A stretch of DNA of 64,000 bases from a virus (IMGVR_UViG_3300043411_000704:16257-80256); one strand, 5' to 3'; shown: positions 14,440-64,000, counted from the stretch's first letter. The notes: generated by a model from the letters alone, not told the origin. Numbers and translations: made by a program.

Positions 14440-14487
14440 CAGATTATTTTAAACTTTATGATCGTCTATTGCAAGTAAATAATGTAA

Positions 14488-14658
14488 GTGACTGAAAAAT
14501 TCGATAAATTGATTGCCGACCTAATGAAAGAAAACATGATGGCGGTTAATGTTCTTGGGCAAGCGAGTTCAGAACCATATGATATATCTGATGTTAGAAC
14601 GCCAAAGGTAATGGGAATGCGCCGACGTTTGAAAATTAGAAAGAAAAAATCTAAGTAG
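14488..14658 (+). CDS. Small basic protein (56 aa) with KFDxL signal; absent from the ORF track
   Basis: GTG start 6 nt after TAAATA (14476-14481). Reads MTEKFDKLIADLMKENMMAVNVLGQASSEPYDISDVRTPKVMGMRRRLKIRKKKSK. Confidence 0.8.
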   Translation: MTEKFDKLIADLMKENMMAVNVLGQASSEPYDISDVRTPKVMGMRRRLKIRKKKSK

Positions 14659-14700
14659 AAATGGAATTGCAATACGACTAGACATGTAGTATAGTTTTGT

Positions 14701-15165
14701 GTGAACTACACATTTATATCATTCGATGATCTTCTAAAATCATGTGAGACAAAGATCATTAATTTCTTATACGATTACCAATTATTAGAAAAATATTCTC
14801 CAGATGTGAAAAAAGTTCTTTTATATTTTCTGATAAAAGAATTTAATGAGAAATTACATGATAGAAAATTACTAATTTATCATACACATACTATTTCTGG
14901 TGATCATGAATTATTAGAAATTTATCCAAAAGAAGAATTGGATAAATTTTTCAATAAACTCTGTTTGAAAATCAAGAAAATCACTAAAAGATTGTTTTTT
15001 ATATCAAAAGACACTAAATTACCAGTAAAAGGTGAGATTCATCTATTGGATGGTTCTATAATTGATGAGATCGTGTTGTTAAACAATGAACAACCAGATT
15101 TAAAACAACTTAAAACATTTTTGTCCAAACATAAATTAGGTGAAATGTTCACTTCAATTCATTAG
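14701..15165 (+). CDS. Hypothetical protein
   Basis: 154-aa ORF filling the gap between neighbours. Confidence 0.7.
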   Translation: MNYTFISFDDLLKSCETKIINFLYDYQLLEKYSPDVKKVLLYFLIKEFNEKLHDRKLLIYHTHTISGDHELLEIYPKEELDKFFNKLCLKIKKITKRLFFISKDTKLPVKGEIHLLDGSIIDEIVLLNNEQPDLKQLKTFLSKHKLGEMFTSIH

Positions 15166-15167
15166 AT

Positions 15168-15755
15168 TCATTTATGAATATCAAATAATTCTAGTAATTT
15201 ACTATAATCCTTGGTCAGACTTTTCTTTGTTAAATGATTGGCTGGTAAAATGTTTAATATATCTGGATGGGTATAATTTACGGGAAAATCTTTATAGTCT
15301 CGTTTTTTCCATACTTGTAGAAAAGTCATGACATATGCATTGCTAGCTTTAACATATTTTTCAATATCTATGTTCAGCTTATGTTTTTTGACCAATTTAA
15401 CAACTCTACGATCAGCATCTAATTCTAGTGCCTGAATATTAATCAGATGATATTTTGGACAAGTTTTATATTTTTTAGCTAACCAATCATAGAAATAATT
15501 CAATGATTGTATACCTTTTTGCCACAGTTTAGTGTTGGTTTTCCATTGTAAAAAATGACAATATTCGTGTAAAAATATCTCAAAATCCAATTCAGTATCA
15601 AAATAATTAATCATGAATGTAGGTTTAGTAGGTTTTTCTACTGAAAAATAATTTGCAGAATGTTTGCTATTATTTTTTCGTTTATTGAATAAAATAGTGA
15701 CTTCGTGCTGGACCATATCTTTGATCGCCTGTCCTATGAAGTGTTCTTCCGTCAC
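15168..15755 (-). CDS. HExxH zinc metallopeptidase-like protein
   Basis: FLHEYCHFLQ and downstream ELDADR; late promoter 6 nt before the GTG. Confidence 0.7.
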   Translation of the reverse strand: MTEEHFIGQAIKDMVQHEVTILFNKRKNNSKHSANYFSVEKPTKPTFMINYFDTELDFEIFLHEYCHFLQWKTNTKLWQKGIQSLNYFYDWLAKKYKTCPKYHLINIQALELDADRRVVKLVKKHKLNIDIEKYVKASNAYVMTFLQVWKKRDYKDFPVNYTHPDILNILPANHLTKKSLTKDYSKLLELFDIHK

Positions 15756-15773
15756 GACACATATTTATCAAAT

Positions 15774-15802
15774 AAAAATGCCGGTGGATTAATCCACCGG
15801 CA
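15774..15802 (-). terminator. Rho-independent terminator after hsp20
   Basis: tgccggtgga-ttaa-tccaccggca hairpin followed by a T-run on the minus strand. Confidence 0.85.
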
Positions 15803-17367: not shown

Positions 17368-18802
17368 TTTTAGGTAGATCCTTACCAATTTTTCGCCAGT
17401 CAACGAATGCATTTTTATATAAATCGGACAATTTTACTTCTTTTTCGTCAAATTGGAAGTTGGTAATACTAAAATTTGGACGATTGTTCTTAATCGGGGT
17501 AGGATTATATAGTTTCAACAGACTTTGTGGATTCGCTATGAATTGAGATTTAATCGTTTCTGCTAATTCTTTATTATCTACAGTTCCTACAATTATAGTA
17601 TCTGCTTTGCCAAAAAGCCTAGCACTAATAGTCCATTTACCATTCACTTCTTCAAGTTTAATATCAAACTTATATGCAAATGTTGGATCGACTTCAAGTA
17701 ACTTTTTATAGTTACTTTTAAATGTCGATCTCAGTCTACCAATGTCTAAATAACGACTAAAATCAACTACATCAACTTCAGGTGTCGGACATTCGTCTAA
17801 TATTTTGGTATTGGCATCAATGATATATGCACACTCCAATTCAAATTCCCAATCAGCATGATCTCTATTAATTGCCAAAATCTTATCTGATCCTGGACAA
17901 GTTAGATATAACATTTTAGATTCGTCCATGATATTTTCTGCTATAATAGTGGTCGTCAAATGTGACAACTTTCCGAACCGTGATCCAATAAAACTATATA
18001 ATTGATCTACTGTTGTGAATTCCATGTCCGAACCTACGTGATAGGTTCCTGATAGATTTAACAAGTCAATCTCATATGCTGCATTGAATCGCAGATCTGT
18101 TAGATTTTTAAATATTTCCTTCAGTTGTTTGAAATCCAGAGCGATAACATCTTTCTTGTTATCTGTTGGTTGAATAACGTAAAAACCCTGTTTCACATCG
18201 TAAAATTGTATAAACGGAACTACATATTTCTTCAAATATTCTTCTTTTTCCTGTGCAATCTTTTTAGTATTTTCCGCATCAAGTTCAGCCTTCTTTATAA
18301 GAAAGTGTTTTTCTTGCTCATATGCTTCTTGTTCTCTACGAGAATATTCAGATAATGCATTTCCACATGCTTTGATTGAATCAGATAAAACCAACTTTTC
18401 AACCAAAAATTCACTCTGTGGTATAACTTTAATATTAATTGGTATTACTGGATTAATTTTGTCATAACCTGATTTTTTTGATGGCATAATTCCACCTAAT
18501 TGTAATGAAGATTGATTTCCTAGTCTAGTTCTAAAGTAATCATTTGTCGATTCAACTACTTCACTGATTTCTTTGTTAATTTCTTGGACTACTGTATTTC
18601 TAGTATCCAGCCAAGCACTATATTCAGTTTTTAATTCTTCACTCAATTTTGTTGGTTTATTGATGAATTCATGTAAAAATTCCTTATATGTTCGTTCTCT
18701 GACATCAACATATTCTACTGTCGGGGTCTTTGATGATGATTCAAAATGTGCTAATAATTTCGTAACACCATTACTATCGGTTAATTCTATTGTTTTTTCC
18801 AT
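17360..18802 (-). CDS. Hypothetical protein (480 aa)
   Basis: Long ORF; TAAATA 7 nt upstream of the ATG. Confidence 0.8.
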   Translation of the reverse strand: MEKTIELTDSNGVTKLLAHFESSSKTPTVEYVDVRERTYKEFLHEFINKPTKLSEELKTEYSAWLDTRNTVVQEINKEISEVVESTNDYFRTRLGNQSSLQLGGIMPSKKSGYDKINPVIPINIKVIPQSEFLVEKLVLSDSIKACGNALSEYSRREQEAYEQEKHFLIKKAELDAENTKKIAQEKEEYLKKYVVPFIQFYDVKQGFYVIQPTDNKKDVIALDFKQLKEIFKNLTDLRFNAAYEIDLLNLSGTYHVGSDMEFTTVDQLYSFIGSRFGKLSHLTTTIIAENIMDESKMLYLTCPGSDKILAINRDHADWEFELECAYIIDANTKILDECPTPEVDVVDFSRYLDIGRLRSTFKSNYKKLLEVDPTFAYKFDIKLEEVNGKWTISARLFGKADTIIVGTVDNKELAETIKSQFIANPQSLLKLYNPTPIKNNRPNFSITNFQFDEKEVKLSDLYKNAFVDWRKIGKDLPKND

Positions 18803-18828
18803 AAATTTTTATTTAGATGAATTATATT

Positions 18829-19434
18829 TTACATTAATTCTTTTGCTTGCTCAAACTCAGATTCATCAACTCCTTCCATACTGAAGTTTAATTTACTCAT
18901 TACATCATCCATTTCAAAAATACCGGTTGATACAGGTCGGTCAATTCGTGCCTGCCAATTATGCCATTGAAAATAACTAATTCGGTTATCAAATTCTGTC
19001 ATGTCACCAACAGGTCGCTCTTTAATAAACGTAAAATTAGATTCAACTATTTTTACATATTCAGCCGCATTATCTTGATCCATATTAATCACAACCAAAA
19101 AATGTTGGTCGTCGTGACCAACATCAAATGTTCTAAAATTTAATTGTGGTTTAGTATCTGGCACTTTTAACTGCGGAACTTCTTGATCCGCAATTTTATA
19201 ACTTTGTCCAAACCCCGGTTCTGAGATTTCAGCATTGACCTGTGATACTGAGTTCTTATATTCTTCCAGACCTTTAGATATATATTCTGCCGCATTTAAT
19301 GCCATTTCGGTATCACCTTTTACTGGACTGTTCAACACTACGGTATGTTTCCATAGTTCCATATCTGGGACATCAGACAATCCGATCTCCATTTTCAATT
19401 TCTGTTTAATAGTTTCTTCGTCAAACTTGATCAT
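18829..19434 (-). CDS. Hypothetical protein
   Basis: 201-aa acidic ORF. Confidence 0.75.
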   Translation of the reverse strand: MIKFDEETIKQKLKMEIGLSDVPDMELWKHTVVLNSPVKGDTEMALNAAEYISKGLEEYKNSVSQVNAEISEPGFGQSYKIADQEVPQLKVPDTKPQLNFRTFDVGHDDQHFLVVINMDQDNAAEYVKIVESNFTFIKERPVGDMTEFDNRISYFQWHNWQARIDRPVSTGIFEMDDVMSKLNFSMEGVDESEFEQAKELM

Positions 19435-19450
19435 GTTCTATATTAAACCA

Positions 19451-19488
19451 TAAAAAAACCGATTTCAACTAATTAGTTGAAATCGGTT
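19451..19488 (-). terminator. Rho-independent terminator (perfect 32-bp palindrome)
   Basis: aaccgatttcaactaattagttgaaatcggtt at 19457-19488 ends in a T-run on the minus strand. Confidence 0.85.
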
Positions 19489-19752: not shown

Positions 19753-20709
19753 TTATTTACCTAGATTATCAATTTCCTGATAAATGTCTGCCAGTGCATT
19801 AGGAATCACAATTTTATATGCCGAGACTTCTCTAATCTTCTCCAGACGACGAGTTTGAAGAACTGAATTCAGGGATTCTAATTCATTCTGATATTTCTGG
19901 AATCGCATATTATATTCTCGCGAAATAGTATCAAACTCATTACTAGCTTTAACGGATGCTAGGGTAAATTCCCTTTGTAGTTCTGCATTCTTTTCAGTTA
20001 CCCGATTCTGAATACGTGCCTTATATGAATTCAACTTAGATTCATATTCCCGATGTTTGGCTTGAAGATCAAAATATTCCTTATTAATTCGATCTTGGTC
20101 GAAATTAGACTTTGCAAACATCGGAATCTCTGTTTGCTGTCCATTTTGAAGAATCTTATGGAATCCCACGACTGGCCCACCAGCAAGATCATTCTTGATG
20201 TTAGACATCACACCACCCGTATGGATATACTTCCCTATATGGGAAGCCTGTGCCTCTAGCGCATAATATTCGGCTCTTTCTGCAATGGAAAGTTCACCAA
20301 CCGCATCGGTTTCAGTCCATGCCTTGACACCAAGAGGTTTATTAAACACTGGTGCGGTCTCTGTGAATTCTGGAATCTTTTCCTCATCAGTAAGAAATTC
20401 AGATGCATCGCATGTTCGATAAAACTCTAGTAATGTTGTCTTTGCCTTAATTGCTTCTTTAAGCCATGCAGACAGTGCAAAATATCGTCCTTCCTTTGTC
20501 CAATCATCAACCTCAACTTGAGTCGAGGTCGTAACCCAATGGGGCTTGCCATCAAGGACCACATTATAGTTAAATGCTCTTGCACCAGAAAGGCGTTTAC
20601 TAATGATCGTGTTTTGTTCCTTCAACAAATTACTAATATGATTAGCATGTGAAGATGAAATTCCTTCTTTTGCGAAGAAAACTAGATTGTGTTTTTGGTT
20701 TGTTTTCAT
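19753..20709 (-). CDS. Coiled-coil hypothetical protein co-transcribed with the ncRNA candidate
   Basis: 318 aa, largely helical (GISSSHANHISNLLKE...LSAWLKEAIKAK...YKIVIPNAL); has its own sigma70 promoter. Confidence 0.85.
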   Translation of the reverse strand: MKTNQKHNLVFFAKEGISSSHANHISNLLKEQNTIISKRLSGARAFNYNVVLDGKPHWVTTSTQVEVDDWTKEGRYFALSAWLKEAIKAKTTLLEFYRTCDASEFLTDEEKIPEFTETAPVFNKPLGVKAWTETDAVGELSIAERAEYYALEAQASHIGKYIHTGGVMSNIKNDLAGGPVVGFHKILQNGQQTEIPMFAKSNFDQDRINKEYFDLQAKHREYESKLNSYKARIQNRVTEKNAELQREFTLASVKASNEFDTISREYNMRFQKYQNELESLNSVLQTRRLEKIREVSAYKIVIPNALADIYQEIDNLGK

Positions 20710-20718
20710 AAGTTATTG

Positions 20719-20747
20719 ATTATAGTCTATGTGTTTTAGTGTGTCAA
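20719..20747 (-). promoter_or_regulatory. Consensus sigma70-type (early) promoter
   Basis: TTGACA-N17-TATAAT, 9 nt before the ATG at 20709. Confidence 0.9.
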
Positions 20748-25185: not shown

Positions 25186-25295
25186 TATCTAAATTTAACC
25201 CAATCTAAACAACAAATCAAGCAAAATCTTCAAATTCAGCATCAAAAACACGCTTTTTCAGCTTAATATTTAGTAAAAGATTGTAAATATATAAT

Positions 25296-25500
25296 TGTTA
25301 TCAGGTGGTTATGAGGAAGAGAGAATAGGAATTCCCTTCCTGGCGAAACTCTTTGAGTTTTTATAGACAAGAAGTTATCCTACTCTCTTCCAAATGTAAC
25401 CTGATAAATCAGTATGGCCCCATCGGAATCCAGTCTAAGTTTTGATGGGTAAATTTGGAAATCCCCTTGACCAGTCGAGCGGTTGATCCCCTTCCGTATC
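25296..25500 (+). ncRNA. Candidate late-expressed structured ncRNA
   Basis: TAAATA at 25284-25289; nested stems 25298-25306/25399-25407, 25315-25323/25383-25391 and 25326-25330/25378-25382; hairpin 25419-25449 with G-U pairs on the plus strand. Confidence 0.55.
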
Positions 25501-25630
25501 AACACTAAATTTATATGTAAACTAATGGTGATCCATTTTATTGGACGAAGTATTAGTTAAGTTCTATTTAAACAGATTCGAAATACGATTGCAAGTTTTT
25601 TCTTCATCCATTGTAAACTTTTTTTCTCTG

Positions 25631-25638
25631 TATAAATA
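25631..25638 (+). promoter_or_regulatory. T4-type late promoter TATAAATA
   Basis: Exact T4 late consensus 7 nt before the ATG at 25646. Confidence 0.85.
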
Positions 25639-25645
25639 AATTTCG

Positions 25646-26092
25646 ATGACACCAAAATTTGACGAATTATATACCCAATTAATGGAAGACCTTTCACAAC
25701 AAGGAAAAGGATTGTTGGCCAATCAGGGAGGTGGAGGATCACCAGCCAATAATTCGTCAAAGCCTATTACAGCGCCTTCTACTAGTTCCGCACCAGCAGT
25801 CAAGCCTGCAACCAATCTATCAGGTCAAAAGCCTTTAAACAGCACACAGCAAGATTTTGGGGTATTGTTACAAGATCCGAACGATAATACAGCAGCAGAT
25901 GCGGTATTGAATCATTTGACTACTAATAATATTGATTTTAACGATCCTAAATTTGCAGAAACACCTGAAGGACAGGCAATAGGACAAAGAATTCAAAAAA
26001 ATCCTAAATTTGCAGATGCACTAGATCAGGCACAACAGCGATTGATTGCCGGTGCATCAGATGCAACTAAACAAGCATTTGCAACACAATAA
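25646..26092 (+). CDS. Putative virion internal protein (KFDxL signal)
   Basis: Begins MTPKFDELYTQLMED; low-complexity Ala/Gln/Ser; late promoter. Confidence 0.75.
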   Translation: MTPKFDELYTQLMEDLSQQGKGLLANQGGGGSPANNSSKPITAPSTSSAPAVKPATNLSGQKPLNSTQQDFGVLLQDPNDNTAADAVLNHLTTNNIDFNDPKFAETPEGQAIGQRIQKNPKFADALDQAQQRLIAGASDATKQAFATQ

Positions 26093-26132
26093 TATCATAC
26101 ATAATCCACTATCATTTTGTTAAATAATGTGA

Positions 26133-27142: not shown

Positions 27143-27157
27143 TTGTAAATAACCTAC

Positions 27158-32595: not shown

Positions 32596-32624
32596 TAGAC
32601 AAGGGTGATCAGATGTGGTAGATT
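32596..32624 (+). promoter_or_regulatory. Sigma70-like promoter of the DNA polymerase gene
   Basis: TAGACA-N17-TAGATT with extended TG, 6 nt before the ATG at 32631. Confidence 0.6.
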
Positions 32625-32630
32625 GATCAA

Positions 32631-44835: not shown

Positions 44836-44873
44836 AAATTGAAACTCCTGTGTTAGCCGCTAAATAAAAAACA

Positions 44874-47218: not shown

Positions 47219-47227
47219 ATAGTTTTG

Positions 47228-49975: not shown

Positions 49976-49992
49976 TTTCTTCTATTTAAAGG

Positions 49993-50020
49993 TTGAATGT
50001 ATTAATTTTGGTGTTATAAT
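49993..50020 (+). promoter_or_regulatory. Sigma70-type promoter
   Basis: TTGAAT-N16-TATAAT with extended TG, 6 nt before the ATG at 50027. Confidence 0.7.
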
Positions 50021-50026
50021 ATGTTT

Positions 50027-50777: not shown

Positions 50778-51101
50778 ATGAAACTGAAGAAGAATATTGG
50801 GCTAGATATAAAGACGAACAAAACCGTCGCCAACCATTTATGATTTCGAAGCCGCATGGAAGTATACAAGTGGTTGTGGTCCAGAAAAACGAATTGTTTA
50901 TAAAATAGTATGAAAAAGTTTAAACAACAGATAAAACGGAAAGAAGAAAAATTTTCCATGGGATATCGAGATACCTATATTTTTAATTGCGGTTATGTAG
51001 AAGCATTAAAAACCAATAAGTTGATAACCAATCAACAATATGAAAAATACATGGACCAATTGACTAGAATTTGTAACTATACCTGAACATCGTGAAACGT
51101 T

Positions 51102-52843: not shown

Positions 52844-52853
52844 TATCAGTTAT

Positions 52854-53822
52854 TTAAGCTATTTGAACCACATCATCTGCTTTTGCAACAGGTGTTGGAA
52901 CATGTCGGGTCATAGGACGATTAAGCCTATCCACAATAGATGTTCCATTTTCAGTCTGAATATCAAAGTATTGAGGTTCAAGTTTTATCTGGTAATCAAC
53001 CGGGAAGTAGGCGTCCAGCAATTGTAGCGTCGGTCCAAATCTTTGTGCAGATTTTACTAAACATGGGGCCACAGATTTTTTATTTCTTTCGCTGTTCAAA
53101 ACATCCATTGCACCTGGATAACCATGACTGGCCGATGTATTGGAATCATTTAATAAAATAGCATTATTTCCCTCTGGACGTTGGGCTCGCAAAAACAAAC
53201 AATTTACTAATGATGTTGATATATCAATTTGGTGCCCAACATTTTTAAACATTTTAGTATCCACATTTCTCCTTAGTGGATAATCAGTGCTCATCATATT
53301 TTTACCATCAATTTCTATTCTTTTTAACGGATGAATATCTTTAGAAGTTAATACGATTTGGCCCAGACTTCCTACTTGTTCGGAAATTTGTTGAAAGTGT
53401 GGAAATTTTCCTATATTATTTTGGATATATGCATTAACCGATGGATGAATTGCTTGTGCTCTTGAGATAAATTCTCTATACATCGGAATATCCATATCAT
53501 TTGCCGTCACCGTATTTTGTCTACCTATGGTAGAATTATTGGAAATAGAATTCAGGACGTTTAAGGCAGTTTTTACTTGATTGCTGATTCCTTTATTTTG
53601 TTTATCACTATATAAGGACAACAAGGACAGTAATAGATTGGCAACCGCACTGTTGGTTCCTACCCAAACACCGTGCATTTCAGATATTAATTGTAATACT
53701 TGTTCTAAAGGTTTTTGAGAGTGTTGGGTTGCATGGCGGAATTCGTCAAAAACCGTGAGTTTTTTACGTTCTCCAGACGGAATCGCATATAAGTTTTTGA
53801 CAAAATCTTCTTTAACCACCAT
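52854..53822 (-). CDS. Hypothetical late (probably structural) protein
   Basis: TAAATA 6 nt upstream; lies in the baseplate block. Confidence 0.7.
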   Translation of the reverse strand: MVVKEDFVKNLYAIPSGERKKLTVFDEFRHATQHSQKPLEQVLQLISEMHGVWVGTNSAVANLLLSLLSLYSDKQNKGISNQVKTALNVLNSISNNSTIGRQNTVTANDMDIPMYREFISRAQAIHPSVNAYIQNNIGKFPHFQQISEQVGSLGQIVLTSKDIHPLKRIEIDGKNMMSTDYPLRRNVDTKMFKNVGHQIDISTSLVNCLFLRAQRPEGNNAILLNDSNTSASHGYPGAMDVLNSERNKKSVAPCLVKSAQRFGPTLQLLDAYFPVDYQIKLEPQYFDIQTENGTSIVDRLNRPMTRHVPTPVAKADDVVQIA

Positions 53823-53838
53823 TTTGTTTATTTAACTC

Positions 53839-53867
53839 TTGACTTATGTATCATCGAATAGTAATAT
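53839..53867 (+). promoter_or_regulatory. Sigma70-like promoter
   Basis: TTGACT-N17-TAATAT, 5 nt before the ATG at 53873. Confidence 0.55.
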
Positions 53868-53872
53868 TGGAT

Positions 53873-54166
53873 ATGCAAGACCATACTAAACAACATCTGT
53901 TGAAAATTATTGATTTACTGTATAATGAATGCAAACGTTCTGGTGGAGATGGTGATGCAATTTGGTTTATAAAATATTATAAATTAGAAGATATAATACC
54001 TTTAGTCGAAGAGTATAATTCAAAATTAAAATTCCCATTCACTTTCCAAAAAATATCCGATAAAACTATGAATTGGGGAGATAATCAAGAATGGGTGACA
54101 TTTACCACTGACGAAGAGATTTACAATAATTTACCTGGATGGGAACAGATGGTAATTAAGAACTAA
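53873..54166 (+). CDS. Hypothetical protein inserted on the opposite strand in the baseplate block
   Basis: MQDHTKQ...SGGDGDA. Confidence 0.7.
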   Translation: MQDHTKQHLLKIIDLLYNECKRSGGDGDAIWFIKYYKLEDIIPLVEEYNSKLKFPFTFQKISDKTMNWGDNQEWVTFTTDEEIYNNLPGWEQMVIKN

Positions 54167-55724
54167 TTATAGGAACATCTTCACCATCCTGCATTCTATT
54201 AATTTCTTGATAGGTATGAACTTTTACGCCTATTAATTCGGTAGAATATGAGCGGTTAGATGTAGAAAAATTATGGATTACTGATGTCAGAAAATACTGC
54301 CCTTCCAATTTCGAGTCATGTTCTTGATCATTTTGGGTTTGTTTACTGAGTCCAAAAAAACGTCCGGGGTTACGATGTGTTAATCCTCTAAGTTGCAAAG
54401 AAATGCACAAGTTTGTAAACAAATAATGTTGTAGTATTTTATTCCGTCCTTCAACCAACCGTTGTTTATCGTTATAATACGGGGAATATACATAATCAGT
54501 ATTATATCCTTCCTTAATATATCTAGTTACGGGTAATCTATCATCAGACTCTTGTGTCAATATATTAGGTGCCACACTGTTCTTATAAAACTCTTTATAT
54601 TTTTCAGACACATGTTCTTTTGATTCGATATTAAACTGTCCCTTTTTTTGGTTGTATGATACGATCACTTTATTAGACAAATTAATTGCATAATCTAAAC
54701 CTGACATGTCAATTAATTGATAATTTGAGGTCTTAGTATAATTATCAGCCTTGACCTCTCCTTCAAACGAATTTTTACCCAACGGTGCTTTAGGTATAAT
54801 CACATCAAATTCATTACTGTTTGATGTTTGTGATCCTTCTTCTAGGAAAATATGTTCTATCTGATATTCCCCAGGAGTAGTCGCCTCTTTACCTGCTTTT
54901 TCAAAATATTTTTTAAACGGTAATAAAGAAAACTGTTTAGGTTGTCCTGTTTCTGCCCGTTCTAATTTCAAAATACATGGTTGAAATTGATTTGATTCGG
55001 ACGATGTATGACGATCATGAATATAGTTCAGGTCTTCAATAAAGCGCGTATTGGTTGCTGATGTATAAAATATTTTATTTTGTGGATCACCTTTATCCCA
55101 AAATTCTTCATCGTCTACTAGTTCCGCATGTTTTGAAAAATCTGTATCCGATTTTAATAATTCTGCAAGTGCTTCTCCAGTCTTCAGTGACCGATCTTCG
55201 TTGTTTAATTTATGTATATTAGACTTACCCTTGTTTTCACCTGTGTTGGCAGTCGTAAATTCCACGTTTTTTTCCTGCATTAACTGATAAAGTTTTTCAT
55301 GAAAATATAAAACCTTAGATTTTTTGGACATGTCAGTATGTTGATTATCCTTTACATCGTAAATAACAGCTTCCAATTCAATTCTCCATCTTTTTTCTTC
55401 AAATTCTCCAAAATCAATTTCCAAGTCTTCTTTTTTTGGCAAGACCGAGATGAAAAGGGTGTCACGACCATCATTACGGAATTTATAAATGACTTTTGTA
55501 TTATCTGCCGCAATGAGTGCCACTTCAGCAGAACTTCTTTCTAATGAATCGAACGGCGAACTTATTTCAATAGAACCGCGCATCCACCATTCAAATATAT
55601 CCTCCTCAATATACAGGTTGTCCCATCCTTCAGGTCTTAGTTCCACCTCATTTATACCATTTTTTAACACTATTTTAAAATAGTAATCGTGCTGGTTGAA
55701 TGAATAAATTGAAGTATCTGCCAC
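54156..55724 (-). CDS. Baseplate hub protein (gp27-like)
   Basis: LYIEEDIF...GSI at the N-terminus; GLTHRNPGRFF...LEGQYFLTSVIHNF at the C-terminus. Confidence 0.7.
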   Translation of the reverse strand: MADTSIYSFNQHDYYFKIVLKNGINEVELRPEGWDNLYIEEDIFEWWMRGSIEISSPFDSLERSSAEVALIAADNTKVIYKFRNDGRDTLFISVLPKKEDLEIDFGEFEEKRWRIELEAVIYDVKDNQHTDMSKKSKVLYFHEKLYQLMQEKNVEFTTANTGENKGKSNIHKLNNEDRSLKTGEALAELLKSDTDFSKHAELVDDEEFWDKGDPQNKIFYTSATNTRFIEDLNYIHDRHTSSESNQFQPCILKLERAETGQPKQFSLLPFKKYFEKAGKEATTPGEYQIEHIFLEEGSQTSNSNEFDVIIPKAPLGKNSFEGEVKADNYTKTSNYQLIDMSGLDYAINLSNKVIVSYNQKKGQFNIESKEHVSEKYKEFYKNSVAPNILTQESDDRLPVTRYIKEGYNTDYVYSPYYNDKQRLVEGRNKILQHYLFTNLCISLQLRGLTHRNPGRFFGLSKQTQNDQEHDSKLEGQYFLTSVIHNFSTSNRSYSTELIGVKVHTYQEINRMQDGEDVPIISS

Positions 55725-55738
55725 TTTTGATATTTATG

Positions 55739-56056: not shown

Positions 56057-57069
56057 TAGGTTCGTGGTCTATTATTTTGACTCAATACAAATTCACCTGC
56101 ACTTCTAAGTGAAGGATTTTCTGCAATAAATTGTTCTAAACTATCAACAGCCTGTATTCTCTCACCTGTATCTAATCCATTCATAATATTTCGTGTATCC
56201 ATCAACAATGAAGTAAACGTCATGTTAAATCTATATGCTTCGGGAATTATTCGTTTGACTCCATCACCATATAGTTGCATCTGATAGGTATTTCCTAAAT
56301 TAGTTATTTCCAAAGAAGAAACATAACATGCAGGCATAGAAATAATATCTGGTATGTGCATATCATATATTACTGGCGGGTCTACAATAAATGCGGACCT
56401 ACGAGCCGGACTATTTTGATATGCCAAAATATATGCTAAATTTCTATTGTTTGCAATATCCTCTACTGTTCCGGTATTGAATAAATCAAACGTGACGGAA
56501 AAAGTAGGAGGAGTTGAATTTACCCAACTTTGCGGATTTTCTAAATTTATTTTTCCTGGTAAAAGAGTGTTTAAAATACCAACCGCAGTTTCTGTTCCGG
56601 CCAAAATTTTTCCCAGAAAACCCATACCGCTAGTCTTACCACGAATTGCGGCAAGAGATGCGGAATTATTTGCCAGTTCAATCAAATTGTTGAACGGGTT
56701 TTCATTATCTCCATACCCAAAGTCATTTGTTTTTGAATGTTTTTTTGGATTGAAATATGGAATTTTATAGGTAAATCCAGTGGGTTCTGCAAAATATTTG
56801 TATTTGTATATACTACGATCATCCGCCGCACCTCCAATAAGACTGTCCGTTCCATTAACAATATTATCTGCAGCCTTAGTATAAAATATAGCAGCACTTA
56901 TCAACTGACCTACGTTTTGTTGATATTCGGTTAGATATATACATGGAACATTCACTCTACCTGATTGCGGTGTTTTAGTCCAGGCCATGCGAGTTACATC
57001 CACAGCAGAATCCCCAGTAGGAACAAGAAACCTACTAGATTTATCAGACTGTTTATATGTTATTGCCAC
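56056..57069 (-). CDS. Baseplate/tail-tube cap protein (gp48-like)
   Basis: FSVTFDLFN...PPVIYDM...ACYVSSLEIT...PEAYRFNMTFTSL, a tail-tube-like fold; position next to the tape measure. Confidence 0.6.
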   Translation of the reverse strand: MAITYKQSDKSSRFLVPTGDSAVDVTRMAWTKTPQSGRVNVPCIYLTEYQQNVGQLISAAIFYTKAADNIVNGTDSLIGGAADDRSIYKYKYFAEPTGFTYKIPYFNPKKHSKTNDFGYGDNENPFNNLIELANNSASLAAIRGKTSGMGFLGKILAGTETAVGILNTLLPGKINLENPQSWVNSTPPTFSVTFDLFNTGTVEDIANNRNLAYILAYQNSPARRSAFIVDPPVIYDMHIPDIISMPACYVSSLEITNLGNTYQMQLYGDGVKRIIPEAYRFNMTFTSLLMDTRNIMNGLDTGERIQAVDSLEQFIAENPSLRSAGEFVLSQNNRPRT

Positions 57070-57082
57070 AACAGTTATTTAA

Positions 57083-59287
57083 TTAGCGTCTAAGCCTGTC
57101 CAGTGCCTTTGCACGGAAGTCTGCACCAGGATTTCTATTGCTCTGTTGTGTCCCACCAGAAGCCGCACCTGCGGTCGCAACAACCGCATTAGTCACATTG
57201 TTAGACCCCATTAATGTTGCTTCAGCAAGTATCGTAAATCCGTGGCTTAAAATCTGAATTTCTTCATCCATTTTCTCAATCATTTTCTTTAGTGCTAAAT
57301 CAAATGGTCCACCATTTTTAGCCATTAGAATTTGATCTTTAGAATGTGGTTGGACAACAACCGCATCCTTGGTCGCAGGAAATTTATCAGAAATACCTAG
57401 TTTATCTGCAAACCAATCACCAATTTCAGTTCCATGTGATGTTAGTTTCGATGATGCGGATTCAAAAATATTTTTTAAATTGTCTAGTATAGATTTAAAA
57501 AACCCGCCTGCATATGATACTAAATTTTCTACAAATTTATCAGGATTAAGCATCTGTTTGTTCGCATCTGGTATGGCAGAGGATGTTTTCCCACCATCCA
57601 GAGTATCAATCAATCCGAGTAATCCACCTAGATACGGTAATGGGGTAAACCATCCAATGGCATTCATCAAAGATTTTAGTCCACCACTGATATCACCGTC
57701 CATAAACTGTTTACCCGCATCATACATTCTCATTAGACCGCCAATAACAGGCACCTTTTTCAAATTTTCAGCCGATAATTTGGTGCCCAACCATTTTGTT
57801 AGTGGACTGAAGAAATCGCTTATCATTTGTCCTTTAGTTTGACCACCTTTTTGTTTGTAATCTAGGAATGCATTGAATACGTCTAGACCAACAGATATAG
57901 CAGTTCCAATACCAGGAAATAGCGTTGCTATTCCAGATGCAATATCTAGAACCCCACCAAATACATCATTCTTCTTAAATCTATCATGTGCAGAATAAAA
58001 GGATATTATAGTTCCTATAAGAGGAACGAATTTAATAACCTTTAATAATTTTGCACCAAATTTCAATCCAGATCCGGTTAAAATTTTAAGGAAATTCGTA
58101 GGTTTAAATTTTTGTAAAATTTTGGACCCCGCCATTCCTTTTAACAAGGATTCGCCTGATTTTTCAAAAAAATTGGCCATCAATTTTGGTATATAACCAA
58201 GTAGATTATCAAGACCGCCCATGACCTTACCGAATATTTTTCCAGTCAGTTTATTACCAATTCCTAATATCAGAGATGTTATACTTTTGAAAATACCTTT
58301 GGTCAATATTGTTGCAATACCTGATCCTTCGTCACCCAGACGTTCTTTCAGACCAAAAAAGGAAAAAGTGGTTTTGAAAAATTTGGTAATAACATTGAAT
58401 GTCCCGCTAATTGCATCATCCATCAATTGTGTGATTGATTTTTTATGTGTAATCAGAAAATTAGTGGTGCCTGTAATCAGATAATCAAATATTTTGCTAA
58501 AAGTGTGACCTATTAATCGAAAGACTCTCTGTATTTTACCGGACTCTAATAATTCACCTGCCCAACCACTTATGGCACTGCCTATTTTTCTGATCGTCTG
58601 TTTAATAGTCTTACCTAATTCAGTTTTCTCAATCAAATATGATATACCCGCAAGACCCGCAAACATAGTCAATCCGCTGGTAATAAAGCCTAATATACTC
58701 GAAAGAACACCCCCTTTTTCTTTATCATTGTTCTCTATTACTACATTTGTCAAACCTTTTTTAATTGTTTCCAACAAACTTTTATCCATGGTCTTGACAT
58801 TAACATCCATAGAATGGATTCGGTGTGAATGACCAGATACGTCAGGTTTTGATAAAACCGATTCGGATGAAAATCTTTTTTGAAAATGTTGAAAGAACGT
58901 ATCATATACTGAGTCTTTTATATGCACCAGATTTACATCTATTGCATGAACTCTATATTCACCACCTTCCTCTTTTTTATGTCGTGTAAAGGTTGATGAA
59001 AAATTGGACTGTAATTTGGTAAAGAATGCATTAAGTGAATTTAATGTATTTTTACCAGAAAATGCATACTCTATATTTTTAGAGATCTTTTCTATCTTCG
59101 ATGAAAATTTATCAATATTTTGAGTCAGTTTTTTAACAACTCCATCCTTTACATTGAATGGTGATTCATCACTTTCGAAAAAGTCACCCATCTTTTTTGC
59201 CAAATATTTTGTGCCCTTACCATTGCTTTTCATATATGCATCAATAGCAGTAAGTAACTCACTCATGGTATTCGTATTATTTGGCAC
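57083..59287 (-). CDS. Tape measure protein (gp29-like)
   Basis: 734 aa; Gly/Ala-rich amphipathic helices; KFVPLIG...FPGIGTAISVGLD. Confidence 0.75.
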   Translation of the reverse strand: MPNNTNTMSELLTAIDAYMKSNGKGTKYLAKKMGDFFESDESPFNVKDGVVKKLTQNIDKFSSKIEKISKNIEYAFSGKNTLNSLNAFFTKLQSNFSSTFTRHKKEEGGEYRVHAIDVNLVHIKDSVYDTFFQHFQKRFSSESVLSKPDVSGHSHRIHSMDVNVKTMDKSLLETIKKGLTNVVIENNDKEKGGVLSSILGFITSGLTMFAGLAGISYLIEKTELGKTIKQTIRKIGSAISGWAGELLESGKIQRVFRLIGHTFSKIFDYLITGTTNFLITHKKSITQLMDDAISGTFNVITKFFKTTFSFFGLKERLGDEGSGIATILTKGIFKSITSLILGIGNKLTGKIFGKVMGGLDNLLGYIPKLMANFFEKSGESLLKGMAGSKILQKFKPTNFLKILTGSGLKFGAKLLKVIKFVPLIGTIISFYSAHDRFKKNDVFGGVLDIASGIATLFPGIGTAISVGLDVFNAFLDYKQKGGQTKGQMISDFFSPLTKWLGTKLSAENLKKVPVIGGLMRMYDAGKQFMDGDISGGLKSLMNAIGWFTPLPYLGGLLGLIDTLDGGKTSSAIPDANKQMLNPDKFVENLVSYAGGFFKSILDNLKNIFESASSKLTSHGTEIGDWFADKLGISDKFPATKDAVVVQPHSKDQILMAKNGGPFDLALKKMIEKMDEEIQILSHGFTILAEATLMGSNNVTNAVVATAGAASGGTQQSNRNPGADFRAKALDRLRR

Positions 59288-59293
59288 AAAACA

Positions 59294-59310
59294 TATTTAA
59301 TTGTTAAATA
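59294..59310. promoter_or_regulatory. Back-to-back divergent late promoters
   Basis: TAAATA on the minus strand (59294-59299) and plus strand (59305-59310), each 6 nt from its start codon. Confidence 0.85.
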
Positions 59311-59316
59311 AGTTTC

Positions 59317-59823
59317 ATGACAAATCTTGAACTGTTATATGAATCCCGATTTACCACTATTCGTCCATCTTTAATAAATTCGATATTGAATGCTGAAAAA
59401 AATAAAAATTATTCTGTGATCGAAGGTTATGTGAAGGCACTAAATGAACATGAAAAACAACATTTGGTGGAAGAAGGATTTTTGGATAGAATGCAAGAAG
59501 TTATAGAAGAGGCCCCACAATTTTGGGGTGGTCTTAAAAATGCATTTTCGGGAATTAAACAAAATTATCAGGCTGGTAAACAACAGCAGGCCCAGAAAAA
59601 TTTGATTAATCAAATTAATCAATATATGCAAAATGGACAGAAATTGTTTAATCAATTACCAACGGTTTTCCCTAATGATGTGCAAATGCAACAATTAGTG
59701 AAGGATATTGGTCAATGGGTTACGAATCTAAATGCCCATGCTATGCCACAACAACCAGTGGCTCCATCGACTACACAACAGCAATCAACCCCACCACCGA
59801 TACCAACCACACAGACACCTTAA
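59317..59823 (+). CDS. Putative virion internal protein, Gln/Pro-rich
   Basis: Begins MTNLELLYES; LVEEGFLD is a possible protease site; late promoter. Confidence 0.7.
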   Translation: MTNLELLYESRFTTIRPSLINSILNAEKNKNYSVIEGYVKALNEHEKQHLVEEGFLDRMQEVIEEAPQFWGGLKNAFSGIKQNYQAGKQQQAQKNLINQINQYMQNGQKLFNQLPTVFPNDVQMQQLVKDIGQWVTNLNAHAMPQQPVAPSTTQQQSTPPPIPTTQTP

Positions 59824-60641
59824 TTTAGAAACAAAACGGGTGATAGTTCTACTTCACCTGTGTATTCTATATCATTAATCGTAACTTTAATTTGATTGAT
59901 TTTTGTGAGTTGTTTGCCGAACACAGTATCTATTTTGGTAGTAATTTGGTTGAATACTGATGCCGGTAGTGCTTCAGTTATAGCAAGTCTATCAGCGATT
60001 TTTTTATCAACTAAATCTATTATTTGATCCCCTATTTTAACTTGCTTAACATATTGGGCCACCGCATTAATGAACATTGGTGCAAATAATGATTTGATAG
60101 AGTCCACGTTTTTCTGATCAAGTCCTTGAATACGAGTTTTATATAAATTGTTTTCAAATTGATATTCTTCTTCTATCGAAGGATAGTTCAGCACCACTTT
60201 GTATTGTTCGTTACCAACCTCAACATCAGTAAATGACAATTTCATTTTTTTAATTTTGTTCAGCAATGCCGGTATTTCAACCGTGGTCGTGGTATCTCCT
60301 TTTTCAGACCTTACATGCACAACTAATTCCGAACTAATATTTTTTGATCGTAGTTCTAATAGTAAAACTACTTTATCCAAGATATTTAGATATGCTAATG
60401 ATATACTTGGGTCTTTGATTTCGTTCAAGACATTATACATCATCAGTGTGAAATGATTTGGGGAAAACACACCTTCTAGTGCAGATTTTGCAATATTTTT
60501 GGTATGAGTCGCATTAAGAGACTTAATATGTATTTCTTTGCCAAGTGATGGAATATAAACATCTTGCTCTAATTTCTTATTAGTGTCCGCAATAAGAGAA
60601 AGAATATCTTTTACTTCCATAGGTTTTTCATTTTCAGCCAT
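59820..60641 (-). CDS. Baseplate hub assembly protein (gp26-like)
   Basis: VYIPSLGKEIHIKSL, LNILDK..LLLELRSKNIS and VVLNYPS motifs. Confidence 0.7.
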   Translation of the reverse strand: MAENEKPMEVKDILSLIADTNKKLEQDVYIPSLGKEIHIKSLNATHTKNIAKSALEGVFSPNHFTLMMYNVLNEIKDPSISLAYLNILDKVVLLLELRSKNISSELVVHVRSEKGDTTTTVEIPALLNKIKKMKLSFTDVEVGNEQYKVVLNYPSIEEEYQFENNLYKTRIQGLDQKNVDSIKSLFAPMFINAVAQYVKQVKIGDQIIDLVDKKIADRLAITEALPASVFNQITTKIDTVFGKQLTKINQIKVTINDIEYTGEVELSPVLFLN

Positions 60642-60672
60642 TTTCAATTATTTAGATGCGATATTATTTGTA

Positions 60673-61626
60673 TCAACTAAATTCTGACGGACTTTCAAAC
60701 ATATCCGTTTGTTTAGGTTCAGATTTTTCAGCAGATGTATTGACTTGTTTTAGGTAATCCATCATTATATTGGATTCCATAGGAGAAATACGCATGATGA
60801 ATTCTGGGTTTATTGCAACAGGTTGAGATGATAGATTGAATATATTCATCAATAACGAGTTAATAGAATTATCTTTAAACAATATTTTTATCAAATCCGA
60901 TATGGTTGTGATTTCGAATTTTAGATCAAATTTCTGTTTACATGAATGGACTGGACAACATGTGTTTAGGAAACTGAGGTCGGACAATGATTGATGAATC
61001 GGATTGAGGAAATCGTTTTTGATATTGTTAATCAATCCTGCGGGTAGTTGTCGAAAAATAAGTTTCCGATCAGACATCTTGAGATCATCAAAAGAAATTA
61101 GATTATCATTGATCATCAATTTTCTTATATGCGATAGAATATAATTATCATATAAGTTATCAAAATCTTTTTTGTTCTCATTATTCAATAATCCGTGTTC
61201 AAATAATTTATATTCGGTGTTAACCGATGGGATATCCATGATGCAAACAAATGTTTCGAACGAGATTCTGGTTGAGAACGACCGATCTATATCAGGACCC
61301 ACATTGGTGATCAATTGATTTAAATCCAAATTTATGTCAAATGGAATACCACATTTATCACAAACCCTACTCAATGATATGGATGGGGAACAACTATATA
61401 ATTTAAGATAAATGCAGATAATAAACCTGTCAATGGTTGTCAACGTGTTGTAATCATAATCCGATACCAAATTATCTTTTAATATCTGATTTAAATGATA
61501 GAAGAACTCAATCTCAGTCTCATCATCAATGACCTTTAATAAACATCTGTATTGGTCATTGGTTAGTTCTTGAAATCTCAGGTAATTCCTTATAGATGGA
61601 ATCCATATTAGATAAGAATTTTTCAT
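60673..61626 (-). CDS. Baseplate hub assembly protein (gp26-like, possible gp51-like C-terminus)
   Basis: IWIPSI, LTTIDRF, CDKC, CPVHSC; C-terminal FIMRISPME. Confidence 0.65.
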   Translation of the reverse strand: MKNSYLIWIPSIRNYLRFQELTNDQYRCLLKVIDDETEIEFFYHLNQILKDNLVSDYDYNTLTTIDRFIICIYLKLYSCSPSISLSRVCDKCGIPFDINLDLNQLITNVGPDIDRSFSTRISFETFVCIMDIPSVNTEYKLFEHGLLNNENKKDFDNLYDNYILSHIRKLMINDNLISFDDLKMSDRKLIFRQLPAGLINNIKNDFLNPIHQSLSDLSFLNTCCPVHSCKQKFDLKFEITTISDLIKILFKDNSINSLLMNIFNLSSQPVAINPEFIMRISPMESNIMMDYLKQVNTSAEKSEPKQTDMFESPSEFS

Positions 61627-61638
61627 AACGGATACTTA

Positions 61639-62523
61639 TTATGCTAAATTTCTGGTATCTTGATTGATAAATTCTTTATTGGGAGTGGTAGAAAATGTTT
61701 GGGACGACGCCCGCAGATTATTCTGAACTGGCACCGCTCTTTCAACTGTTTGTCCTACAAAGCCTGTTTCATTTCCACACTCGGATTGTTGATCTTGATT
61801 TATTTGATATGATTCATATACAAATTGTGCTTGCCGTTTACCATAGTCTGATGTATCATATACAAGTTGTTCAGGTGATATAAAAGTAGGGGCCGCATTT
61901 TTAAATATCCATGCTTTTCGTATATAATTAGGAACGGTTTCTCCTTGACGTGCTAGTTGATATACATAGATATTGGCTTTAATCGACTGGTTTAGAGGTT
62001 TTGCTAACAATCCTTCGTGTGCAACCAGAATAGACCACGGCCTTAGCACACCATCCACAAATGATTGATGTGTTTCTAAAAATCCGACTTCCAGCGGCTC
62101 AAAATCTGACCTACCATTTATAATTGGTCCATTAATGAACCCTCTTCTTGATCCCTCGGTGATACCCGCACGTTCAACATTTATGGTTTCTCCAGGTAAA
62201 GAAACTCCCTGTGCAAATATACAGCCGACAGTGTTCTGTGTCTGTTCATTCCAGGTATCATAAATTATGTTTTGAGTTCCCCATCTAGGATCTTCCAGTT
62301 TTTGCATAGAAGTTGATAATCTATTGAGTAGATAATCTTTATCATGTGCATCAATGACCAACACCCACATATACTGTAGTGCAGGATTATATGCCCATCT
62401 ACACATCATCTGGTGAACGAACGGAATTTGCGAATGAGTCACATCAGGCACACAATTTACTCTTGGAGTATCCAAAAATAAAGGTTGTCTGATTATACCA
62501 CAATTAGTAAAGATTTCGGTCAC
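61639..62523 (-). CDS. Tail tube-like / tube initiator protein (gp54/gp19-like)
   Basis: AQGVSLPGE, LEVGFLET, RPW and WIFKNAAPT...FVYESY motifs. Confidence 0.7.
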   Translation of the reverse strand: MTEIFTNCGIIRQPLFLDTPRVNCVPDVTHSQIPFVHQMMCRWAYNPALQYMWVLVIDAHDKDYLLNRLSTSMQKLEDPRWGTQNIIYDTWNEQTQNTVGCIFAQGVSLPGETINVERAGITEGSRRGFINGPIINGRSDFEPLEVGFLETHQSFVDGVLRPWSILVAHEGLLAKPLNQSIKANIYVYQLARQGETVPNYIRKAWIFKNAAPTFISPEQLVYDTSDYGKRQAQFVYESYQINQDQQSECGNETGFVGQTVERAVPVQNNLRASSQTFSTTPNKEFINQDTRNLA

Positions 62524-62532
62524 GGTAATTAT

Positions 62533-62982
62533 TTAACCGTTCTTTTTCCTAAAATGATCAACAAAAGGTTTTTTAGTTAAATCATATTCCTTTTGATATT
62601 TTGGTCCAATTTTATATAAACCATTTGGATGCACAACTTTTATTTCCATATCACCTTGTTTAGAGTTGACAGATGCCCCAATTTCTTTGGGGTTCGTCCC
62701 ATCTATTTTAATATGACCTGATACACCATTGGCAATCCCAATTTCGTTTGGATCTTTTTTTGATATATTTCTACCTCGTATTTTAGAAACACCGTTACCC
62801 ACATATTGCTGATTACCTAATTTAGTTCGTTGTGATGCAGTTTTATTATTATGACTACGCATATTACGAACAACACTAGATAACCCTGCTTTTCCAGGTT
62901 CCCAATAACGAGATTTATGTTCCTTTCTTTTGGTAGAAGGAGTTAATAGTTCTGTTATTAGACGATCAAACTTTGGAGTCAC
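62533..62982 (-). CDS. Basic putative internal protein (KFDxL signal)
   Basis: Begins MTPKFDRLITELL; Lys/Arg-rich; TAAATA 6 nt before the GTG. Confidence 0.75.
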   Translation of the reverse strand: MTPKFDRLITELLTPSTKRKEHKSRYWEPGKAGLSSVVRNMRSHNNKTASQRTKLGNQQYVGNGVSKIRGRNISKKDPNEIGIANGVSGHIKIDGTNPKEIGASVNSKQGDMEIKVVHPNGLYKIGPKYQKEYDLTKKPFVDHFRKKNG

Positions 62983-63346
62983 TATCCTTATTTAGTTGCG
63001 TTATAATAATGTTGTCCGGAATTTCGCCCATATACAATGGTATAATTTCAGGATCAACCTCTATTACCGAATAATATTTTAACAATATGTTTAATATATC
63101 ATATCCACCATGTATCCAATGCGCAACAGTATCAAATTTTTGTATGATTAAGCCTTCTTTGGTAATAATTCCAGTAATGCAATGTATAACGGTTTTATCT
63201 AGTATAAGAAAATGTGCATCATTATGAATAATTAGGCACAAATCGGGGGTATGCAAATCTGATAATTGATCAGCATTATATGACGCGAATTGTGAAATAT
63301 TAGGCTTTAGGTGGATAGATTTTGATTCTATGAGATAGTGTTGCAT
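62966..63346 (-). CDS. Hypothetical protein
   Basis: 126-aa ORF overlapping both neighbours. Confidence 0.5.
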   Translation of the reverse strand: MQHYLIESKSIHLKPNISQFASYNADQLSDLHTPDLCLIIHNDAHFLILDKTVIHCITGIITKEGLIIQKFDTVAHWIHGGYDILNILLKYYSVIEVDPEIIPLYMGEIPDNIIITQLNKDSDSKV

Positions 63347-63836
63347 AGTTGTTCAATTTGTTAATGTCTATTAATGGAATATCATTGTCCATTCCATGTT
63401 CTTTGTGAACAAAGAATGTATATCCTTCACTGATAAAAATATTAAAGTTCTTTTTCAAGAAGGTAATAGCATCAGTAGATGCAATCATACCTGTTTTTAT
63501 GTATGTGAATCTTGATAATATCCATTTAAGAATACGATACATGAGAGAGAAATTAAATCTGCCTTTTTTAGTATAAATCATTTTAGTTTCTATCCCACCA
63601 TCAGATAATATAAAACCCTCATAAAAGGCGACGGCTTCATCCGCGATAAAGAAGTAATAGTTCCCATTGGTTTCTGATTTTATAATGAAACGGAAACCAT
63701 TTAGATCAAAATTATCCACTATTGGATCATTTACATGATTTTGTGCATTACCCAACCAACGGTCTTCGTTGTTAGGCGTTCTGTCTGACACTGAGCGCAT
63801 TAGCATTTCATAAAGCGCATCGAATTTGGGAAGCAT
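63300..63836 (-). CDS. Hypothetical protein with KFDxL signal, related to 8930-9487
   Basis: Start MLPKFDALYEML, 5 nt after TAAATA (63842-63847). Confidence 0.7.
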   Translation of the reverse strand: MLPKFDALYEMLMRSVSDRTPNNEDRWLGNAQNHVNDPIVDNFDLNGFRFIIKSETNGNYYFFIADEAVAFYEGFILSDGGIETKMIYTKKGRFNFSLMYRILKWILSRFTYIKTGMIASTDAITFLKKNFNIFISEGYTFFVHKEHGMDNDIPLIDINKLNNYATLSHRIKIYPPKA

Positions 63837-64000
63837 ATTGATATTTAATATACAAAACGTCATTTTCACTTGTAATACAACACCCTTGTGTTAGCTTTAT
63901 CCGTGGAGATACCGGCATCATATACGATTTCTAAATTTAGGCAGTATTGTGGAAAAACTGTTCAGACTTCAAAATATCTGAACGGTTCATGTCCTATTTG

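Follow-up and report, generated by a model that had tools for sequence, protein, structure and literature searches.

Why the hexamer TAAATA should stand at a short and nearly constant distance upstream of so many start codons is the question raised by a 64,000-nucleotide (nt) stretch of viral DNA, bases 16257–80256 of a single IMG/VR virus record of 80,256 bp (IMGVR_UViG_3300043411_000704). This stretch, at its full length, is hereafter denoted the window, and positions are counted from its first base. Its source is a very divergent T4-like phage; the contig has a G+C content of 34% and is 31% complete by CheckV, which would put the full genome at about 260 kb. A preliminary description had read the pattern as leaderless late gene expression, with gp55-type late promoters placing the transcription start on or next to the start codon. 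The start-adjacent TAAATA pattern is real and highly non-random, and the assignment of TAAATA as the late promoter of this phage is well supported. Leaderless or near-leaderless late expression is the best explanation for the layout and, in our judgement, a fairly probable one, resting on geometry and comparative signatures; the position of the transcription start, the dependence on gp55, the late timing and the mode of translation are all inferred.

All 21 TAAATA copies listed in the preliminary description are present, as is the TAAGTA variant at 61633, although the list missed two further sites (46870, plus strand; 1357, minus strand). The spacing of 5–7 nt, given there for about 20 starts, holds and is in fact sharper, being mostly 6 or 7 nt. 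Over the 80-kb contig the spacer between TAAATA and the start codon is 6 nt at 15 sites, 7 nt at eight, 5 nt at two and 8 nt at one, 26 start-adjacent sites in all, 22 of them in the window. The sites of the window, with spacer (N), start codon and following gene or open reading frame (ORF; lengths in amino acids, aa), are as follows:

1348–1362, minus strand: TAAATA-N6-ATG, 222-aa gene at 682–1350
14476–14490, plus strand: TAAATA-N6-GTG, 56-aa ORF at 14488–14658, M-T-x-K-F-D family
15753–15767, minus strand: TAAATA-N6-GTG, 195-aa gene; hairpin and T-run immediately upstream, 65 nt of free DNA upstream
18800–18815, minus strand: TAAATA-N7-ATG, 480-aa gene
25633–25648, plus strand: TAAATA-N7-ATG, 148-aa gene; the box closes a 460-nt non-coding gap
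26121–26135, plus strand: TAAATA-N6-ATG, 224-aa gene
27146–27160, plus strand: TAAATA-N6-ATG, 433-aa gp47/SbcD-like exonuclease
35181–35196, plus strand: TAAATA-N7-ATG, 94-aa ORF; the box shares its TAA with the stop codon of the DNA polymerase gene
41667–41681, plus strand: TAAATA-N6-ATG, 97-aa gene
44861–44876, plus strand: TAAATA-N7-ATG, 205-aa gene
46870–46885, plus strand: TAAATA-N7-ATG, 111-aa gene
47216–47230, plus strand: TAAATA-N6-ATG, 227-aa GH46-like glycosidase, candidate lysin
49973–49988, minus strand: TAAATA-N7-ATG, 695-aa gene
52841–52856, minus strand: TAAATA-N7-ATG, 493-aa protein with gp5-type OB domain
53820–53834, minus strand: TAAATA-N6-ATG, 322-aa gene
55722–55736, minus strand: TAAATA-N6-GTG, 522-aa baseplate-block protein; start residue shared by its homologues, junction conserved among near relatives
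57067–57081, minus strand: TAAATA-N6-GTG, 337-aa gene
59285–59319, both strands: two back-to-back TAAATA boxes, for GTG 59287 (minus; 734 aa) and ATG 59317 (plus; 168 aa, baseplate-hub-like)
60639–60654, minus strand: TAAATA-N7-ATG, 273-aa T4_baseplate/hub-like protein
61624–61638, minus strand: TAAGTA-N6-ATG (variant box), 317-aa T4_baseplate protein (PF12322)
62521–62535, minus strand: TAAATA-N6-GTG, 294-aa tail-tube-like protein
62980–62994, minus strand: TAAATA-N6-GTG, 149-aa gene
63834–63847, minus strand: TAAATA-N5-ATG, 178-aa gene

The genes behind the boxes mostly encode baseplate hub, T4_baseplate, tail-tube-like and gp5-type OB proteins and the GH46 lysin candidate. The claim that nearly every structural gene has its own mRNA is borne out to the extent that 11 of the 13 minus-strand genes in the structural block (47.9–63.9 kb) have a box of their own; the other two overlap the upstream gene, and the gp47-like nuclease, a non-structural protein, is also encoded behind a box.

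Against a dinucleotide-shuffled background TAAATA is scarce in the window (69 copies; 122 ± 11 expected). Among the 15 orderings of AAAATT on the contig it is the rarest, with 83 copies compared with 115–288, and 23 of these 83 lie 6–7 nt before an ATG or GTG that begins an ORF of 50 codons or more; no other ordering exceeds three per spacer bin. The enrichment of the short spacing over controls, on which the preliminary description depended, is clear. When motif-to-start pairs within 40 nt are considered, 23 of 45 fall in two spacer bins (binomial p 2e-18), for which uniform placement predicts 0.13 sites. The low G+C content of the genome and its A/T-rich upstream regions might suggest that an A/T-rich hexamer has simply clustered by chance in A/T-rich intergenic DNA. 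This can be dismissed for practical purposes: no peak arises with any of the 14 other arrangements of these letters, the p values range from 2e-18 to 1e-43, and the pattern is replicated in 75 loci from relatives, so that the ordering control, the statistics and the replication together refute it.

Within coding sequences TAAATA is depleted about three-fold in both directions, with 21 copies in the sense orientation (66 ± 8 in codon-shuffled genes) and 25 in the antisense (70 ± 8). A signal read in mRNA would be avoided on the sense strand only, whereas a directional promoter does harm whichever strand it lies on; the avoidance on both strands is as expected of a signal in DNA. The same observation bears on the proposal that the hexamer is no promoter at all and is instead a non-Shine–Dalgarno (SD) translation-initiation element, such as an A/U-rich landing site for the ribosome or S1, or the target of a phage factor. 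Its fixed short distance from the start codon, where elements resembling ribosome-binding sites sit, would fit such a role, as would the lack of SD motifs and its frequent position between tightly packed, co-oriented genes. Besides the antisense avoidance, however, the proposal has to accommodate the divergent genes starting at 59287 (minus) and 59317 (plus), whose 29-nt gap, where promoters must be, holds two back-to-back boxes separated by 5 bp, both with a spacer of 6 nt. Further evidence against it is that the hexamer is the core of the T4-family late box and lies 16–27 nt upstream of starts in phage S-CRM01, that it covaries with a base-contacting residue of gp55, and that sigma70-type −35/−10 promoters occur at the same spacing (see below). 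We regard an RNA-level role as improbable.

The sigma70-like promoters were examined with a gene-centred test, which was used in place of a permissive scan that proved too noisy. A sigma70-like −10 box ends 5–9 nt before the start at 9 of 124 gene starts, compared with 1 of 402 internal ATGs (p 1.4e-5). The sigma70-like promoters include:

32596–32633, plus strand: TAGACA-N17-TAGATT-N6-ATG, DNA polymerase gene
49993–50029, plus strand: TTGAAT-N16-TATAAT-N6-ATG, the ATG being the second, at 50027
53839–53875, plus strand: TTGACT-N17-TAATAT-N5-ATG, ATG 53873
19432–19468, minus strand: TTGAAA-N17-TAATAT-N5-ATG, 201-aa gene
20707–20747, minus strand: perfect TTGACA-N17-TATAAT-N9-ATG, 318-aa gene

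The boxes proposed at 32596, 49993 and 53839, with spacings of 5–6 nt, are confirmed among them. Replication genes such as that for DNA polymerase have promoters of the TTGACA-N17-TATAAT type, and the data support the conclusion that these early-type promoters adjoin start codons with the same layout as the late boxes. Position counts upstream of TAAATA, for their part, reveal no conserved −35 element.

A candidate reader of the TAAATA box is encoded in the window:

9487–10497, minus strand: late sigma factor of the gp55 family, 336 aa, matching phrog_234 ('late sigma transcription factor') over two stretches at E 2.4e-18

This protein aligns with residues 10–76 and 91–131 of T4 gp55 and gives a weak direct match, also in two blocks, to PDB 7d7c chain F. 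An NPF..RIKKEK block is conserved; the pattern NP[FH]x[YF]..RIKKE aligns with both the T4 and HTVC008M proteins, the T4 segment reading NPHAYITQ...RIKKERK. Some 140 aa are inserted between the two conserved blocks. The insert varies in length across the near clade of relatives (proteins of 245–336 aa); neither the far clade nor T4 nor HTVC008M has it.

T4 late transcription uses the box TATAAATA at −13 to −6, the sigma factor gp55, the co-activator gp33 and the sliding clamp gp45 (PMC2988020, PMC7892883). In the structure of the T4 gp55 open complex, pockets receive the flipped-out adenines −12, −9 and −8, the last of which is hydrogen-bonded by T99 (PMC7892883). Since these flipped positions fix TATAAATA at −13 to −6, TAAATA would occupy −11 to −6, with +1 at the sixth base after the box. 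In this register a spacer of 5 nt predicts no leader, and spacers of 6 and 7 nt leaders of 1 and 2 nt, respectively. The proposal that transcription starts on or next to the start codon is partly supported, by the geometry, the presence of a gp55 gene and the relatives described below, whilst in the T4 register the leaders here would be 1–2 nt long rather than zero. A zero leader would need this gp55–RNA polymerase to start one base further downstream than the T4 register; by that register only those relatives with a 5-nt spacer would be exactly leaderless. A correction is also needed as to the box itself: the one conserved here is TAAATA, not TATAAATA, the two bases 5′ of it being variable in the spacer-6 class (A5/C3/G5/T2, then A3/C2/G4/T6).

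Relatives were sought with the 522-aa baseplate-block protein (54156–55724). A single-protein scan of IMG/VR found nothing; an alignment-based IMG/VR scan with this protein gave the 75 loci used here. Its homologues number more than 100, all metagenomic, some of them about 720 aa long with an SLT lytic transglycosylase domain (PF01464). No match was found in GenBank phages or prokaryote genome contigs, and the lack of a GenBank phage match places this phage in an uncultured clade distinct from HTVC008M. In the near clade (34–57% identity) TAAATA occurs at spacers of 5, 6 and 7 nt 60, 61 and 22 times, respectively, against 0.5 expected. In two distant clades (25–31% identity) the enriched hexamer is instead TAAGTA, at spacers of 5–6 nt, 60–96 times against 0.2–0.3 expected. 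Near-duplicate loci are included in these counts; once they are collapsed, 55, 55 and 19 unique sites remain for TAAATA, and 51 and 40 for TAAGTA. The box-to-start geometry is therefore kept among the relatives although the hexamer changes. At the junction preceding the 522-aa gene, near relatives retain a box 5–7 nt from the start whilst the flanking sequence differs and the start codon switches between ATG and GTG.

A pyrimidine at −1 followed by a purine at +1 is the start-site preference of bacterial RNA polymerase. Among unique spacer-5 sites in the relatives, 46 of 55 (84%) and 48 of 51 (94%) have a pyrimidine just ahead of the ATG, compared with 46% of other gene starts, a bias that may be read as a transcription-start signature exactly where the T4 register sets +1. 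In the spacer-6 class of the present contig a pyrimidine precedes the start codon at 8 of 14 sites, an uninformative share.

The change of hexamer runs parallel to a change in gp55. Eight phages that use TAAATA, namely T4, HTVC008M, the present phage (with S) and five relatives, have T or S at the residue aligned with T99 of T4 gp55, and four that use TAAGTA have N; motif use differs in line with this residue (p 9e-6). The position of the neighbouring Q100 of T4 gp55 is also altered in the TAAGTA phages, to S.

The absence of SD motifs noted in the preliminary description is confirmed: by duplex energy, pairing with the anti-SD upstream of genes is no better than at random genome positions. 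The mean duplex ΔG is +0.1 kcal/mol for late genes, −1.0 for other genes and −1.4 for background; none of the TAAATA-linked genes has a value of −6 or below. The seven GTG starts are likewise all confirmed (14488, 15755, 55724, 57069, 59287, 62523 and 62982), i.e. 7 of 24 box-linked starts, or about 30%, an enrichment over the other genes of the contig (p 0.016). All belong to the spacer-6 class (7 of 15, compared with 0 of 8 at spacer 7; p 0.05); as weak evidence, this confinement would fit +1 on the G.

Comparison with known systems places the layout between two kinds that are each familiar. As in T4, there are a gp55-family sigma factor, an A/T-rich −10-like box with a TAAATA core and no −35 element, and boxes upstream of virion and lysis genes, many of which have individual late promoters. 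The box here is, however, 6 rather than 8 bp long, T4's T−13 and A−12 are not conserved, no SD is present, and gp55 carries the insert. The distance also differs, as the preliminary description had held: from box to first real start it is 14–28 nt in T4, with a visible SD, 16–43 nt in Methylophilales phage Melnitz (one of eight sites being at 5 nt) and 16–27 nt in Synechococcus phage S-CRM01. In S-CRM01 (bases 1–50000) no TATAAATA occurs in 50 kb of virion genes; TAAATA clusters before the starts in its stead, so the 6-bp core is also the cyanophage form of the late box, there with normal leaders. Closer in layout is the cultured Pelagibacter phage HTVC008M, in which 11 sites across 100 kb read TAAATA-N5-ATG and other spacings are almost lacking. 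It shares with the present phage T4-like character, a G+C content of about 34% and TAAATA fused to starts, but differs in its strict 5-nt spacer, the absence of GTG and a gp55 without the insert.

Amongst systems with leaderless messages, the Thermus thermophilus phage phiYS40 has middle and late mRNAs that are mostly leaderless (Sevostyanova et al. 2007, cited in PMC3594737 and PMC12340547). As far as these secondary accounts go, it resembles the present phage in having phage messages without leaders, with −10 elements adjoining start codons. It differs in not being T4-like, in having no gp55-type sigma reported in those accounts, and in infecting a host of the Deinococcus–Thermus phylum, known for leaderless genes; in the present phage the layout is predicted only, the G+C content is low and the early promoters share the layout. 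Cellular leaderless genes with a −10 region that lies next to the ORF are described in Deinococcus–Thermus (PMC12340547), mycobacteria (PMC4633059) and Caulobacter (PMC8459731). They too have a −10 element a few bp upstream of the start and no SD, but use the host primary sigma factor, whereas here a phage alternative-sigma box would serve a whole late regulon. We found no literature that describes T4-like phages with their late promoters fused to start codons; the layout would combine the T4 late promoter with leaderless expression.

Leaderless or near-leaderless late expression could then operate as follows. TAAATA would be a T4-type −10-like box in shortened form, recognised by the host RNA polymerase when it carries the phage gp55-family sigma factor; because the box ends 6–7 nt before the start, late transcripts would begin on the first base of the ATG or GTG, or 1–2 nt before it, and the sigma70-like early promoters would follow the same geometry. 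Translation of first cistrons would proceed without SD pairing, on mRNAs with no leader or almost none. A leaderless start functions only at a 5′ end, which would account for most late genes having a box of their own, and genes that overlap or abut a preceding stop codon would probably be translated by coupling.

Several observations weigh against this scheme. Read in the T4 register, the commonest spacers of this phage (6 and 7 nt, one above those of the relatives and HTVC008M) predict leaders of 1–2 nt rather than zero, and such leaders cut leaderless translation about two-fold per nucleotide in Caulobacter, a single nucleotide being inhibitory in E. coli (PMC8459731). The first two bases of the T4 8-mer, including the A−12 flipped by T4 gp55, are not conserved. 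Leaderless mRNAs elsewhere strongly favour AUG, whilst 7 of 24 box-linked starts here are GTG; this share far exceeds the 4.4% of Caulobacter leaderless mRNAs (PMC8459731) and the 4–5% of box-linked starts in the relatives (at least 95% ATG), although leaderless GUG is tolerated in mycobacteria (PMC4633059). Far-clade phages have the orthologue of the 522-aa gene inside an operon, with no box to itself. As each clade probably represents one lineage, the covariation of gp55 and motif may reflect a single evolutionary event, and probably does. A purine at the seventh base after the motif (21 of 23 sites) was dropped as independent evidence, since the start codon forces a purine there in the spacer-6 class; it is informative at eight sites only, of which six have purines. 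Finally, neither the sliding clamp gp45 (PF02916) nor gp33, for which no dedicated search was made, was seen on the contig, which, for a record that is 31% complete, is not evidence of absence.

Some of these points would favour a different account, in which TAAATA is a late promoter but its adjacency to start codons was not selected for leaderless translation: boxes would have been squeezed into a compact genome, and genes expressed from read-through transcripts by SD-independent internal initiation or coupling. Packing is indeed tight, with 41 of 124 genes overlapping or abutting the upstream neighbour, and TAA of the box doubles as the upstream stop codon at 35181, 47216, 52851 and 62530. 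The range of spacers (5–8 nt), the far-clade orthologues lacking their own box, and the combination of GTG starts with predicted 1–2 nt leaders, which would make poor leaderless substrates, are all in keeping with it. Nevertheless, spacers of 5–7 nt are retained at 12 sites with 25–460 nt of free non-coding DNA upstream, indicating that the adjacency is not forced by compaction, and an explanation by compaction alone was rejected on these grounds. T4, Melnitz and S-CRM01 are equally compact yet have leaders of 14–43 nt; the spacing is conserved across clades with a changed hexamer, and the pyrimidine/purine signature falls at the start codon of spacer-5 sites. We consider this account unlikely, though less so than an RNA-level role for the hexamer.

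A broader proposal, for and against which we see the case as evenly balanced, is that a large and mostly uncultured radiation of low-G+C T4-like phages, among them the SAR11 myophages and this wastewater/freshwater clade, has merged its transcription and translation start signals. Both early sigma70 and gp55 late promoters would put +1 on the start codon, and most first cistrons would be leaderless, in hosts without SD pairing; the change of box from TAAATA to TAAGTA, together with that from T/S to N at the gp55 residue reading −8, would be a natural switch in sigma promoter specificity. If the predicted transcription starts hold, a major environmental group of T4-like phages would express its virion genes leaderlessly, a mode deemed minor in most bacteria. 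Their hosts, including SAR11 for HTVC008M, would then have to support leaderless translation efficiently; such a constraint on the host of the present phage, which the preliminary description drew, is plausible. Late-promoter detection methods from cyanophages were unsatisfactory on pelagimyophages (PMC7029224), a failure the layout would explain. It would also provide gene callers with an exact rule for placing start codons in these phages (box plus 5–7 nt), and promoter-recognition studies with a natural pair of gp55 variants (T/S and N) for A or G at −8.

Three TAAATA boxes in the 460-nt non-coding gap at 25186–25645 (25267, minus; 25284, plus; 25565, minus) have no start codon at 5–8 nt and may give non-coding late transcripts. 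GH46, a chitosanase-type family, is an unusual one for a candidate phage lysin such as that at 47228–47911 (plus strand), which lies behind a TAAATA box.

The T4-like character of the source is evident from its gene content. The family-B DNA polymerase gene (32631–35183) encodes a protein with about 31% identity to the polymerases of Melnitz and cyanomyophages, and UvsX, a DnaB-like helicase, Dda and the gp47-like nuclease are also encoded. The virion set comprises a baseplate hub, T4_baseplate proteins, a gp5-type OB protein and a tail-tube-like protein; most virion proteins have no family match in PHROG or Pfam. Ribosomal protein S21 (PF01165) was not found on this fragment or on those of five relatives, which, for records 31–65% complete, is not evidence of absence. 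Searches of the window for tRNAs and for Rfam families found none. Bases 1–80 of the contig, 16.2 kb upstream of the window, fall within tandem repeats of an 18-bp unit (AGCACCAACAACCACTAT), and the assembly probably broke at that point.

Wastewater metagenomes contain strains at 95–99% identity; four wastewater runs labelled 'RNA-Seq cDNA' are Logan contigs, probably of DNA, and yielded neither transcript starts nor ends. In two wastewater runs a variant at window positions 50905–51100 has CTA in place of 196 nt, which deletes a 58-aa ORF (50910–51086). The window also encodes a set of paralogues that share the N-terminus M-T-x-K-F-D-x-L right after the start codon (8930–9487, minus; 14488–14658, plus; 25646–26092, plus; 26133–26807, plus; 62533–62982, minus; 63300–63836, minus), most with a TAAATA box of their own, and the conservation of this motif at codons 2–8 lends further support to the assigned start codons.

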